A stretch of 64,000 nucleotides of DNA from positions 2,341-66,340 of the forward strand of contig CALENB010000193.1 in the NCBI GenBank assembly GCA_937910235.1, read 5' to 3'. The notes beneath the pieces are model-generated. The model worked only from the letters and a program-made list of their open reading frames with translations. It was not told the DNA's origin and searched no databases. Origin of the DNA: an uncultured Myxococcales bacterium (GTDB taxonomy: Bacteria; Myxococcota_A; UBA9042). A program made the translations under genes and the position numbers. Below are positions 62,226 to 64,000 of this stretch, piece after piece. The first letter of the stretch is position 1. Every line of letters begins with the position of its first letter.

Positions 62226-62285
62226 ACAGCGTCCTGGCTGCAGCGCCCGCGTCCTGGCTGTAACGACAGCGTCCTGGCTGCAACG
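62226..62285. repeat. Three phased 20-bp direct repeats (core GCGTCCTGGCTG) immediately upstream of the terminal lipoprotein gene
   Basis: acagcgtcctggctgcagcg / cccgcgtcctggctgtaacg / acagcgtcctggctgcaacg. The cores start at 62229, 62249 and 62269, exactly 20 bp apart. The array ends 19 bp before the ATG at 62304. Confidence 0.85.
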
Positions 62286-62303
62286 GAGACGCGGAGCGCG
62301 CTC

Positions 62304-64000
62304 ATGGCCTCGCGGCATTCGACAATCTGGTCGCTCTCCCTCGCGCTGATCTGTGCGGCGTGTGGCACAGCACCCAATGGCGCCACATGCCAAGCATCGG
62401 TTGCGTGCACGTCGCAACTTTGCTACGCCAACGTGTGCCTGGACCCGGCCGCAGACGATGACGGCGACGGGCTCGACAACCGCACAGAGCATCGCATCGG
62501 CTCGCATCCGCAGCGCTCGGACTCGGACGAAGACGGCAAGCGTGACGACGTAGAAGTGGGTCCCGATCCCCTGCACCCGATCGACAGCGATGGCGATGGT
62601 CTGCCGGACGTCGTTGAGTCGCAGAGTCGCGATACGGATCTGGACTGCCTGCCGGATGAACGCGACGCCGACAACACGACGCCGAACACCGATCCTGCGG
62701 TGCTCGCCCGCGACGCCTGCAGCCATGATGGCGTCTGCGTCGGTCAGGCCGACAAGATCAGCGCGTCGTGCCAGATCGGCGTGGGCACGTTGACGTGCGT
62801 GTACACGCAGGTGCCCGGCTGGTCCGCCGTGGAGACCTGCGACGGCATCGACAACGACTGCGACGGCGCGACCGACGAAGGGCACAGTTATCAGGGCACA
62901 GCGGTTGGACAGGCCTGTTACGGCGAAGGCGCGTGCGGCGAGGGCGTCGTGCAATGCAAGCTCGGCCGCGCCGCATGCTCGACGAACCCGGGCGGCAGCG
63001 GCGCGCAGGCGAGCGTCGAGATCTGCAATGGCCTCGATGACGACTGCGACGGCGAGACCGACGAGGGATTTGGTCTCCCGGACGCTCCGGTCGGAGTGCC
63101 GTGCTTGGGGACCGGCGAGTGCGGCATCGGCAAAGTGGTGTGCGGCGACGATGGCGTACCGTTGTGCTCGACCGACCCAGGCGGGCCGCACAGCGATGCG
63201 GCTCCTGAGACCTGCAACGGTTTGGACGACGACTGCGACGGCGCCACCGACGAGCACATCACGCTGGACGGTGTGTCCGTCGGCGGCGACTGCATGGGGC
63301 GCGGCGCGTGTGGGCCCGGCATCATCGTGTGTGGTGCCAAGGGCGAGGCGATCTGCTCGAGCAACCCCGAGAGTCCGGGCTCGCAGGCCAAGGCCGAGAC
63401 CTGCAACGGCCTCGACGACAACTGCAATGGCCAGACCGATGAGGGTTTCACCTGGACTGGCGCCGCGCTTGGCGCGCCGTGCGAGGGCGTCGGCGCCTGT
63501 GGCAAGGGCACGGTCGTCTGCAGCGCGGCCGGAAAGGCGACGTGCTCGACGCAGCCGGACGCGCCCGGTGTTGGCGCCAAGGTTGAGACGTGCGACGGCC
63601 TCGATGACGACTGCGACGGCGCCACCGACGAGGGCTTTGTCTGGCAAGGCAAGACCCTCGGCGCGCCGTGCGACGGACTCGGGATCTGCGGCGTCGGTAC
63701 GGTCGAATGCAACGCCGTTGGGGCGGTCACTTGCTCCAGCAACGGTGATGGCAGCCAATCGAAGTCGGTCGCGGAGGCCTGCAACGGGCTCGACGACGAC
63801 TGCGACGGCGTGACGGATGAAGGCGTGCCTCCCAGCGCCGGGCCCGCCTGCGCCGCGATCGGTCTCTGTGTCGACGCGACCGGGAAGCCGGCCTGCGTCA
63901 GCGGCGCGTGGTCCTGCGCGTTTGATGGCGTCAGCGGCTACCAGGGTCCGCACGAGACCAGCTGCGACGGGCTAGACAATGACTGCGACGGTCTGACGGA
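62304..64000 (+). CDS. Secreted lipoprotein with thrombospondin-type-3-like Ca-binding motifs and at least 8 MopE-like CxGxDxDCDGxTDEG repeats, 3' partial
   Basis: The ATG at 62304 opens MASRHSTIWSLSLALICAAC-G (lipobox). D-rich DxDxDGxxD motifs follow (DDDGDGLDNRTE, DSDEDGKRDD, DSDGDGLPDVVE). Repeats of about 45 aa each pair a CG..GxGxxxC unit with ETCDGIDNDCDGATDEG, EICNGLDDDCDGETDEG, ETCNGLDDDCDGATDE, ETCNGLDDNCNGQTDEG, ETCDGLDDDCDGATDEG, EACNGLDDDCDGVTDEG and others. Frame 0 has no stop before the window end, so the ORF track does not list it. The 580-aa minus-strand ORF 62211-63953 is its shadow. Confidence 0.85.
   Translation, partial: MASRHSTIWSLSLALICAACGTAPNGATCQASVACTSQLCYANVCLDPAADDDGDGLDNRTEHRIGSHPQRSDSDEDGKRDDVEVGPDPLHPIDSDGDGLPDVVESQSRDTDLDCLPDERDADNTTPNTDPAVLARDACSHDGVCVGQADKISASCQIGVGTLTCVYTQVPGWSAVETCDGIDNDCDGATDEGHSYQGTAVGQACYGEGACGEGVVQCKLGRAACSTNPGGSGAQASVEICNGLDDDCDGETDEGFGLPDAPVGVPCLGTGECGIGKVVCGDDGVPLCSTDPGGPHSDAAPETCNGLDDDCDGATDEHITLDGVSVGGDCMGRGACGPGIIVCGAKGEAICSSNPESPGSQAKAETCNGLDDNCNGQTDEGFTWTGAALGAPCEGVGACGKGTVVCSAAGKATCSTQPDAPGVGAKVETCDGLDDDCDGATDEGFVWQGKTLGAPCDGLGICGVGTVECNAVGAVTCSSNGDGSQSKSVAEACNGLDDDCDGVTDEGVPPSAGPACAAIGLCVDATGKPACVSGAWSCAFDGVSGYQGPHETSCDGLDNDCDGLT

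Follow-up and report, generated by a model that had tools for sequence, protein, structure and literature searches.

Among the closest described systems for the gene analysed here are some from methanotrophic bacteria and from animals. MopE and CorA of methanotrophs carry a copper site formed by two histidines and a kynurenine and, apart from it, a structural Ca2+ site (PMC3423442, PMC3912023); in MopE, the copper ligands are His132, His203, and Kyn130 (PMC3423442). The C-rich domain of teneurins, which was aligned with the Pfam family PF11617 by Tucker et al. (PMC3278476), has three Ca2+ ions bound in a TSP3-like and LDL-A-like geometry (PMC9058538).

The window, a stretch of 64,000 nucleotides from an uncultured Myxococcales bacterium, ends inside a gene with PF11617 repeats. 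Positions 62304–64000 on the plus strand are the first 565 codons of a gene for a 1216-aa lipoprotein, and this lipoprotein is a new member of a known, uncharacterised PF11617 group. We consider it probable that the locus as a whole combines a gene for a Ca2+-type lipoprotein with a lineage-specific duplication in its leader, and that no dedicated or metal-responsive regulator is involved. The features of the locus are the following:

60592–62139, plus strand: yjeF (NAD(P)H-hydrate epimerase/dehydratase, 515 aa), the upstream neighbour; Pfam Carb_kinase 7e-54, YjeF_N 4e-38.
62190–62219, plus strand: sigma-70-type promoter-like element with −35 TTGCCG (62191–62196), a 17-nt spacer, and −10 TACGCT (62214–62219); conserved in five loci.
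62224–62285, plus strand: tandem array of 3.1 copies of the 20-bp unit CGACAGCGTCCTGGCTGCAA; Tandem Repeats Finder, period 20.
62293–62296, plus strand: Shine-Dalgarno-like GGAG, 7 nt before the ATG, read from the sequence; GGAG-N7-ATG also occurs in the orthologous locus L007.
62304–64000, plus strand: 5' part of the lipoprotein gene, 565 codons out of 1216; in locus L001, the gene is complete (11713–15363).
62304–62363, plus strand: predicted signal peptide with lipobox, Cys20 codon at 62361–62363; Cys20 is invariant after a hydrophobic stretch.
62454–62666, plus strand: four consecutive EF-hand/TSP3-like loops, DxDxD[G/C]xx[D/N]xx[E/D]; conserved Asp/Glu in orthologue alignments.
62718–62798, plus strand: four-Cys beta-hairpin (EGF-like) module, residues 139–165; weak PDB EGF matches and AlphaFold2 strands.
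62832–64000, plus strand: seven PF11617 modules, the seventh cut by the window end; seven Pfam stretches and motif positions.
62211–63953, minus strand: antisense 580-aa shadow ORF, not a gene; GC1 0.82, GC3 0.66.

The mechanical list of open reading frames held a single entry for this stretch, the antisense ORF, and the lipoprotein frame was missing from it because frames running off the window were unlisted. The plus-strand frame from the ATG at 62304 had no stop up to the window end, and its GC content at codon positions 1, 2, and 3 was 0.66, 0.56, and 0.82, similar to that of the neighbouring genes. The antisense ORF showed the mirror image of these values (0.82, 0.57, and 0.66), and this inversion marks it as a shadow ORF. 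In addition, the product of the plus frame has about 40 full-length orthologues, in which Cys and Asp are invariant, and every public gene call at the locus is on the plus strand. The chance that the antisense ORF is a real gene is therefore practically nil, and the first-pass annotation was right to place the coding sequence on the plus strand. It had also proposed extending the contig to find the 3' end, with a stop shortly beyond the window as the outcome that would speak against the gene. On the longer public contig k127_360646, the frame stays open to a full length of 1216 aa, and the protein P0001 was 100% identical to the lipoprotein over the full length. ORF lists without the frames that run off the contig end, in combination with high GC, give rise to convincing antisense shadow ORFs; the present locus, with the real gene opposite to the listed ORF, can serve as an example for annotation.

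The full-length orthologues, all from uncultured Myxococcota, shared 38–60% identity and aligned end to end. An uncultured freshwater and marine Myxococcota lineage has the lipoprotein gene as a conserved gene, always located after glmM-pdxJ-yjeF. The yjeF gene was the conserved 5' neighbour in all orthologous loci (synteny in L007, L008, L089, L090, and L091), and two public gene calls (P0058 and P0066) have yjeF fused with the lipoprotein gene. The neighbours in these loci and in L001 were yjeF, pdxJ, glmM, rpsA, murC, and unannotated ORFs. No regulator gene adjoining the lipoprotein gene was found among the called genes; an OmpR-type response regulator and a histidine kinase are encoded about 11 kb upstream. 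Pfam searches with the conserved downstream neighbours and with an extra ORF of the relatives gave nothing useful, and no NCBIfam family was matched by the lipoprotein. In the locus search with the family alignment, paralogous MopE-motif proteins dominated the results, and the only true orthologue among them was L009.

The predicted signal peptide ends in a lipobox that reads I-C-A-A, then C. This had been described as a textbook lipobox, which holds for Cys20 and for the G, A, or S at position −1, each present in 29 of 29 aligned orthologues after a hydrophobic stretch, but not for position −3, where Cys is outside the canonical [LVI][ASTVI][GAS]C pattern. The protein would be exported and lipid-anchored at Cys20. 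Four DxDxDG loops occupy residues 51–62, 73–84, 94–105, and 110–121 (first Asp D51, D73, D94, and D110), the key positions of which were invariant in 29 orthologues; among 40 orthologues, most of their Asp residues were invariant or at least 90% conserved. The bacterial TSP3 family (TSP3_bac, PF18884) scored 19.7 bits (E 7.8e-4), below its cut-off of 25. The loops that had been described as TSP3-like Ca-binding motifs are present and conserved, but do not match the family: the likeness to the type 3 repeats of thrombospondins and the TSP3 repeats of bacteria lies in the tandem DxDxDGxxDxxE loops, and the difference in the sub-cut-off PF18884 score. The four-Cys module that follows gave weak matches to EGF in a PDB sequence search (E 0.36–0.9), and AlphaFold2 placed strands at residues 153–157 and 162–166. 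The Pfam families Ldl_recept_a (PF00057) and EGF (PF00008/PF07645) had no match at E ≤ 1. Every Cys of the N-terminal half, from Cys20 to Cys561, was invariant in 40 orthologues.

The HMM scan that had been suggested for the Cu-binding MopE motif did reveal PF11617 repeats: the window part scored 105.5 bits and the full protein 108.9 bits at a Pfam gathering cut-off of 27 bits. In each module, a beta-hairpin unit of the pattern CxGxGxCGxGxxxCxxxGxxxC comes after the motif ExC[ND]GxD[DN][DN]C[DN]GxTDE, and the motifs start at residues 179, 241, 304, 367, 430, 493, and 554. The number and length of the repeats had been overestimated and underestimated, respectively: instead of at least eight repeats of about 45 aa, there are seven in the window part and seven in the full protein (Pfam also reported seven stretches), with a period of 62–63 aa. 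The AlphaFold2 pLDDT was about 87–92 over these modules and 87 for the window-part model overall. A Foldseek search of the N-terminal model against the PDB returned nothing below E 0.9, and no solved relative of the stalk fold was found there.

Kelch families matched the full protein weakly: Kelch_3 scored 23.5 bits against a cut-off of 22, and the others were below cut-off. The propeller fold was tested on the full-length orthologue P0004, not on the window's own protein. The C-terminal half of its AlphaFold2 model (pLDDT 82) was all-beta and matched the NS1-BP Kelch domain (5yy8) in Foldseek with a TM-score of 0.77 and E 6e-13; the model also matched the tandem-propeller proteins GH74, EML1, Aip1, and LRP2 (E ~1e-12). 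LRP2 was the top match of the full-length model (E 2e-13), but with a low TM-score of 0.13. As modelled, the C-terminal half shows two Kelch-like beta-propellers. The N-terminal half would form a rigid, disulfide-locked stalk, to which the seven 63-aa modules contribute along with the four DxDxDG loops of the EF-hand/TSP3-like kind; the MopE motif in each module may itself be regarded as a loop of the DxDxDG type (D-x-D-C-D-G-x-T-D-E) that is held by a disulfide. The loops of the stalk most likely bind Ca2+, and the stalk would project the two propellers as a head for a putative ligand. By analogy with thrombospondin, LDL-receptor, or teneurin ectodomains, the protein is most likely a calcium-dependent adhesin or receptor that would be exposed on the cell surface.

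Comparison of the regions upstream of the orthologues revealed a shared element, CTTGCYG-N14-18-TABVCT, with one match, at the same place, in each of the loci L007, L008, L009, L089, and L091 and none in 81 unrelated loci; the chance expectation was 0.04 matches per window. A sigma-70-type promoter is accordingly proposed at 62191–62219, and transcription would start near 62226. A generic consensus scan for promoters and terminators in 61900–62500 called nothing, and the promoter emerged only from the comparison of the orthologous loci. The distance between the −10 element and the start codon was 84 nt, versus 26–38 nt in the five promoter-bearing relatives. Two other candidates in this region were rejected. 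An RNA element in the leader was discarded because the leader folded no better than shuffled sequence (z = 0.19) and had no Rfam match at E ≤ 1. A sigma-54 promoter at the TGGC of the repeats was dismissed because, on comparison by eye with TGGCAC-N5-TTGC, all three registers lacked the −12 element.

In the predicted 5' leader, past the −10 element and ahead of the ribosome-binding site, the 12-nt core GCGTCCTGGCTG occurs exactly at 62229–62240, 62249–62260, and 62269–62280, and nowhere else in the window. The three direct repeats with an exact 20-bp period that had been noticed before the gene (62229/62249/62269) were thus recovered, in agreement with Tandem Repeats Finder; the distance of 19 bp to the start codon was not, as the last core lies 23 nt and the end of the Tandem Repeats Finder array 18 nt before the ATG. 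The copies are 83% matched, and their four differences are all outside the core, in the 8-nt spacers, a pattern that may come from selection on the core. Since the array is downstream of the conserved promoter, it falls in the transcribed leader. None of the six orthologous loci that were read (L007, L008, L009, L089, L090, and L091) contained it: in L090, there is no gap before the lipoprotein orthologue, and relative to the other five loci, which keep the promoter, the array is an insertion. The array is thus restricted to this lineage. Within the genome, the unit was not found elsewhere in the approximately 74 kb examined (the window and 10 kb beyond). The array is covered by five contigs from five different sample records, and all of them have exactly three identical copies; the array is stable and compatible with a function. 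The genome has further intergenic tandem arrays, with a 17-bp unit ×4.3 at 7984–8056 and a 21-bp unit ×2 at 30371–30411, and a 15-bp unit ×3.1 is located just 3' of the lipoprotein gene.

With its name, Cu-binding_MopE, the Pfam family suggests a different view of the protein, namely, that of a copper-binding or copper-acquisition protein like MopE or CorA, and copper binding had indeed been implied for the repeats. Among the columns of residues 21–570 that were at least 90% conserved in 29 aligned orthologues, 48 were Gly, 47 Cys, 43 Asp, 15 Glu, and 6 Asn, and none was His or Met. The best His column (residue 63) was 76% conserved and lies outside the motifs, and W536 was the only conserved Trp in the same range; a His/His/Trp(kynurenine) triad is not present. 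The MopE/CorA chains in the PDB were not matched at E ≤ 1–10 by the whole protein, the repeat-unit profile, or the single motif, the only hits being insignificant ones to EGF, and no gene for a MauG-like di-haem cytochrome c peroxidase was present among the called neighbours in L001, L007, L008, and L089–L091. Because conserved His and Met are lacking, MopE holds copper through His/His/kynurenine, and the teneurin analogue binds Ca2+, a copper role is unsupported. Judging from residue conservation, copper handling is unlikely, a protein of the MopE/CorA kind is highly improbable, and the lipoprotein looks calcium-stabilised rather than copper-binding; the conserved residues speak for a disulfide-pinned DxDxDG calcium loop. 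A more far-reaching combination would make the lipoprotein family a conserved bacterial counterpart of metazoan Ca-dependent matrix or receptor ectodomains and relate its MopE module, on the prokaryotic side, to the C-rich Ca2+ domain of teneurins, with the leader array co-opted, in this lineage only, as post-initiation control (a repressor roadblock or a site for an RNA-binding protein). We regard this combination as unlikely.

Regarding the array, an origin by lineage-specific slippage duplication is most likely. Replication slippage between GCTG microhomologies probably produced the tandem duplication, which would have lengthened the leader: the distance between the −10 element and the start codon would have grown to 84 nt, having been about 30 nt before. 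If the array influences expression at all, it would do so downstream of the point where transcription starts. The first-pass annotation had instead viewed the three phased cores as a cooperative transcription-factor binding array, possibly metal-responsive, that controls the lipoprotein gene. Three exact 12-nt cores at exact 20-bp spacing, with differing 8-nt spacers, agree with this view, but the phasing, which had been taken as a sign of helical phasing, is a trivial outcome of any tandem duplication of a 20-bp unit, and the conservation of the core, with P = 0.014 if the core is fixed beforehand, is not significant post hoc (P = 0.14). Although the three copies are fixed in 5/5 covering contigs, a repressor roadblock could form on an array that spans about +3 to +57, and the OmpR-type regulator and histidine kinase are encoded about 11 kb upstream, the array is downstream, not upstream, of the conserved promoter and is absent from every orthologous locus read, five of which keep that promoter. 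The search for the core near other promoters, which had been proposed as a check, yielded no second exact core in the window and four one-mismatch matches, all inside large plus-strand ORFs with coding-like GC3; a phased pair of cores was found in none of 185,579 species genomes and in none of the JGI metagenomes. No regulator gene is adjacent, and the protein has no sign of copper chemistry. An operator array is thus quite unlikely, and neither an operator role nor metal-responsive control is supported by the sequence. Another possible role is that of a copy-number rheostat or contingency locus, in which slippage changes the number of 20-bp units and so tunes the expression of a surface protein. 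In Haemophilus influenzae, 7-bp repeats upstream of the hmw adhesin genes tune expression. Like those phase-variable repeats, the array stands in front of the start codon of a (predicted) surface-protein gene, on the downstream side of the promoter, and several further intergenic arrays are present in the genome; however, its unit is long, its copies are only three and imperfectly matched, which makes slippage rare, and its copy number did not vary among the five contigs from different sample records. Such a role is very unlikely. The array, read as a slippage duplication in the leader of a Ca2+-type lipoprotein gene, is an example of a tandem duplication with the look of a phased operator.

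For a specialist, neither the lipoprotein gene nor its repeats are surprising. The family is conserved in uncultured Myxococcota, has a eukaryote-like "matrix protein" design, and is a possible target for research on myxobacterial surfaces. With MopE and CorA, the lipoprotein has in common the Pfam family name only, together with the exported or surface location; sequence similarity is undetectable, the fold differs from the beta-sandwich of MopE*/CorA (PMC3912023), and the structural Ca2+ site demonstrated in those proteins is proposed here by inference. Its closest relatives are PF11617 proteins of Myxococcota, which are named "MopE-related protein" or "putative metal-binding motif-containing protein" at NCBI, and the orthologues bear exactly these names. 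Compared with the other proteins of this group, the lipoprotein represents an orthologous subfamily with a fixed place after yjeF and a fixed architecture (lipobox, four DxDxDG loops, seven modules, and two beta-propellers), no member of which has been characterised.

Outside the bacteria, the C-rich domain of teneurins appears to be the closest solved analogue of the MopE motif, a resemblance recognised by eye. HMMER searches of the PDB, in which the crystal structure of the teneurin-4 C-rich domain should be included, gave no significant match to any chain with the repeat profile or the single motif. The teneurin motif, E..C.D..DNDGDG..D, differs in that the lipoprotein has Cys at loop position 4 and is devoid of the subsequent CC pair; in both proteins, acidic disulfide-pinned loops stand beside EGF-like repeats and are followed by a beta-propeller. 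The LDL-receptor ectodomains, with their LA modules, EGF, and beta-propellers, differ from the lipoprotein in their Pfam Ldl_recept_a modules, unmatched here at E ≤ 1, and in their YWTD propellers, which are Kelch-like in the lipoprotein. The string C[DN]Gx..DC.DG..DE of the lipoprotein resembles the calcium cage of LA modules, and the common logic of the two designs is that of Ca2+-caged, Cys-rich modules combined with beta-propellers.

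The plus-strand frame beginning at the ATG at 62304 is open up to the window end. For this stretch, the mechanical ORF list gave only an antisense ORF of 580 aa (62211–63953), since ORFs running off the window were not listed. The GC content by codon position was 0.66/0.56/0.82 in the plus frame, a pattern shared by the neighbouring genes, and 0.82/0.57/0.66 in the antisense ORF, which is the mirror image. These values settled the coding strand as plus, as the first-pass annotation had held; the antisense ORF is a shadow ORF of a type common in DNA of 66% GC, and the chance that the antisense strand is the coding one is negligible. 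The upstream YjeF protein (60592–62139) led to longer contigs of this organism in the public data. One of them, L001, an aquatic-metagenome contig of 127.7 kb, carries YjeF and the full lipoprotein gene. A stop or frameshift shortly past the window, which would have spoken against the gene, was absent there: the ORF comprises 1216 codons and has its stop at L001 15361–15363.

A protein database search revealed one identical protein, P0001, as well as some 40 relatives aligning over the full length (1176–1331 aa, 38–60% identity). The named relatives were labelled as Myxococcales, Myxococcota, or Deltaproteobacteria MAG, with annotations such as “MopE-related protein” or “putative metal-binding motif-containing protein.” Among 8000 candidates scored, 4157 relatives were detected at E < 1e-5; proteins with the MopE motif (PF11617) are very abundant in Myxococcota, known but uncharacterised, and the lipoprotein joins them. 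In alignments of 29 and of 40 relatives, the lipobox Cys and every Cys of the N-terminal half (Cys20 to Cys561) were invariant, as were most of the loop Asp/Glu residues. The window itself holds a second protein with PF11617, of 672 aa (4731–6746, minus strand), which also has a Dicty_CTDC repeat. In addition, three consecutive large plus-strand ORFs of 1057, 838, and 1193 aa lie at 39744–49169; all three contain an InhA-like MAM domain (PF20773) and the first also Dictyostelium-type Cys repeats (PF00526), so that the region resembles a gene cluster for secreted proteins rich in Cys.

The gene order was conserved in six orthologous loci: glmM, pdxJ, yjeF, and the lipoprotein gene, followed by a small minus-strand ORF, ORFs of ~615 and ~250 aa, rpsA, and murC. 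Some loci carry an extra ORF of 186–239 aa between yjeF and the lipoprotein gene; in the closest relatives it occupies L007 5340–5900, L008 5184–5903, and L089 1849–2442, and Pfam gave no match for it. The window has a mere 164-bp gap at this place, so in its lineage the ORF was either lost or never gained. In two public gene calls (P0058 and P0066) yjeF is fused to the lipoprotein gene. In the locus L090 (GCA_020632665.1), the gene call for yjeF runs 4 bp into the start of the lipoprotein gene (3001–3004), with no intergenic promoter, and hence the gene may also be expressed within the yjeF operon in some lineages. The definition of an orthologous subfamily with fixed architecture and fixed genome position is mildly useful.

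The plus-strand product has the following layout:
residues 1–20, signal peptide and lipobox I-C-A-A|C, with a non-canonical Cys at -3
residues 26–45, four-Cys knot
residues 51–121, four consecutive 12-residue loops, D-x-D-x-D-[G/C]-x-x-[D/N]-x-x-[E/D]
residues 139–165, small beta-hairpin module whose similarity to EGF is insignificant
residues 177–566, seven modules, ExC[ND]GxD[DN][DN]C[DN]GxTDE and then CxGxGxCGxGxxxCxxxGxxxC

The lipobox had been described as textbook; its position -1 is G, A, or S in 29/29 relatives, with a hydrophobic stretch before the Cys, but position -3 departs from the canonical form. The loops at residues 51–121, read from the sequence, follow the EF-hand or TSP3-type DxDxDG pattern and are invariant in the family; the TSP3-like calcium motifs reported earlier stand to this extent, but the bacterial TSP3 model scored 19.7 bits, under its cut-off of 25. 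The MopE motifs start at residues 179, 241, 304, 367, 430, 493, and 554, the seventh being cut by the window end. Instead of at least eight repeats of roughly 45 aa, there are thus seven with a period of 62–63 aa. Inside the motif, the string D-x-D-C-D-G-x-x-D-E is another DxDxDG loop, with Cys at loop position 4.

AlphaFold2 modelled the window-encoded part from a 40-sequence alignment as repeated short beta-hairpins (mean pLDDT 87), and the full-length orthologue P0004 (46% identity) with an all-beta C-terminal half (pLDDT 82). The latter half matched Kelch domains (5yy8, TM 0.77), tandem two-propeller proteins (GH74 xyloglucanases, EML1, Aip1, and DDB1), and LRP2, at E ~1e-12 to 1e-13; the Pfam Kelch families gave a weak match at residues 583–651. 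A Foldseek search of the N-terminal stalk alone against the PDB returned no significant neighbour. The predicted structures support the module layout read from the sequence.

Comparison of the regions upstream of the start codon across the orthologous loci demonstrated a conserved element, CTTGCYG followed after 15–16 nt by (GC)TAGSCT, which can be read as -35 (TTGCYG) and -10 (TAGSCT) hexamers set 17 nt apart. In the window, the element takes this form:
62191–62219, plus strand, putative promoter with -35 TTGCCG (62191–62196), 17 nt, and -10 TACGCT (62214–62219)

The pattern CTTGCYG-N14-18-TABVCT matched once at this position in each of L007, L008, L009, L089, and L091 and in 0/81 unrelated loci, the chance expectation being 0.04 matches per window. 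Its sole other match in the window (29574–29604, minus strand) precedes the minus-strand ORF 28473–29468 by ~105 nt, which suggests that the pattern is a general, housekeeping-type promoter consensus of the organism. A -10 element whose last base is 62219 predicts a transcription start close to 62226; since a scan of 61900–62500 gave no terminator-like site, transcripts from yjeF may also read through. In L007, the closest orthologous locus, a different tandem repeat unrelated to that of the window (TGACCGCCGCTGT, 2.8 copies, 13-bp period) occupies 5898–5934, directly upstream of the conserved -35 of the orthologous gene.

Exact copies of the 12-nt core GCGTCCTGGCTG lie at 62229, 62249, and 62269, and Tandem Repeats Finder reported a 20-bp unit in 3.1 copies (62224–62285), which bears out the 20-bp spacing noted earlier; the last core ends 23 nt, not 19, before the ATG. 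Given the predicted transcription start, the array would be part of the 5' leader, with the promoter on one side and the GGAG (62293–62296) on the other. The -10 element and the start codon are separated by 84 nt in the window and by 26–38 nt, free of repeats, in all five promoter-carrying relatives; the difference of 46–58 nt amounts to roughly two to three copies of the unit. The sixth locus, L090, has neither an intergenic gap nor repeats.

The first-pass annotation had taken the array for an operator-like, metal-responsive element. All four differences among the copies fall outside the core; the probability of this is 0.14 when the post hoc choice of the core is allowed for. The array lies downstream of the conserved promoter and is absent from the six orthologous loci. 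Searches for further core sites gave no other exact copy in the window and no phased pair in 185,579 species-representative genomes or the JGI metagenome collection; the four one-mismatch matches in the window are all within large plus-strand ORFs, with coding-like GC3. The leader RNA folded no better than shuffled sequence (z = 0.19), and no Rfam family matched it. A regulatory interpretation is therefore not supported, and binding of a repressor or transcription factor is unlikely. That the copy number acts as a rheostat is very unlikely, as all five public contigs covering the intergenic region carry the same three-copy allele and are identical to the window over 62100–62320.

The same genome has further short tandem arrays in intergenic DNA, unrelated to this one in unit and period:
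7984–8056, 17-bp unit ACGCCATGTCCGTTGCG in 4.3 copies (98% match), intergenic, period not a multiple of three
30371–30411, 21-bp unit in two copies, in an intergenic gap
L001 15371–15418, 15-bp unit CAGGGTCTCAGCGCG in 3.1 copies, just 3' of the lipoprotein stop codon

Together with the observations on the array at 62224–62285, they indicate that a general mutational process explains it. The unit starts with GCTG, overlapping the end of the -10 element, and slippage between GCTG microhomologies would be a simple origin; the exact 20-bp phasing is an automatic consequence of tandem duplication, not evidence of helical-face binding. The ACGCCATGTCCGTTGCG array ends ~45–65 nt upstream of a 440-aa plus-strand gene (start 8102 GTG or 8124 ATG), and that at 30371–30411 lies between an ORF ending at 30337 and a uvrD-like helicase gene (30443–32821, minus strand). 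The CAGGGTCTCAGCGCG array is ~1.4 kb past the window end, where a short gap separates the lipoprotein gene from a convergent 167-aa ORF. At 10483–10607, between an ORF ending at 10382 and another starting at 11013, there is a GCT/GCC-rich repeat of complex structure, in which periods of 9, 12, 15, 18, and 42 overlap.

Taken as a whole, we consider it fairly probable that the gene product is a conserved protein of Myxococcota, exported and held by a lipid anchor, in which a Ca2+- and disulfide-stabilised stalk presents a double Kelch-like propeller; that transcription proceeds from the gene's own conserved sigma-70-type promoter, possibly with yjeF read-through; and that the leader of this lineage has been lengthened by a tandem triplication. 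The presentation of a double propeller on a stalk points to a probable role as surface adhesin or receptor, the gene being far more certain than its function.

The Pfam family name points to copper, and the first-pass annotation had described the repeats as a Cu-binding, MopE-like motif. In MopE/CorA, the copper ligands are two histidines and a Trp-derived kynurenine, and a separate, fold-stabilising Ca2+ site is made of acidic side chains (PMC3423442, PMC3912023). However, the columns conserved at ≥ 90% in residues 21–570 comprised 48 Gly, 47 Cys, 43 Asp, 15 Glu, and 6 Asn, with no His or Met; MopE/CorA chains were matched by neither the whole protein, the repeat-unit profile, nor the single motif; and no cytochrome c peroxidase-type gene was seen among the called neighbours. 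A copper-binding role is thus highly improbable. Tucker et al. aligned PF11617 with the cysteine-rich region of teneurin (PMC3278476), whose later 1.5 Å structure shows three bound Ca2+, coordinated in a TSP3-like and LDL-A-like manner (PMC9058538); the lipoprotein module itself is not detectable as a teneurin, LA, or EGF domain. From the pattern in the sequence and by analogy, we infer oxygen-ligand Ca2+ sites that would stiffen a disulfide-rich stalk; the argument that the “Cu-binding” motif of this subfamily is a calcium-type loop is mildly useful.
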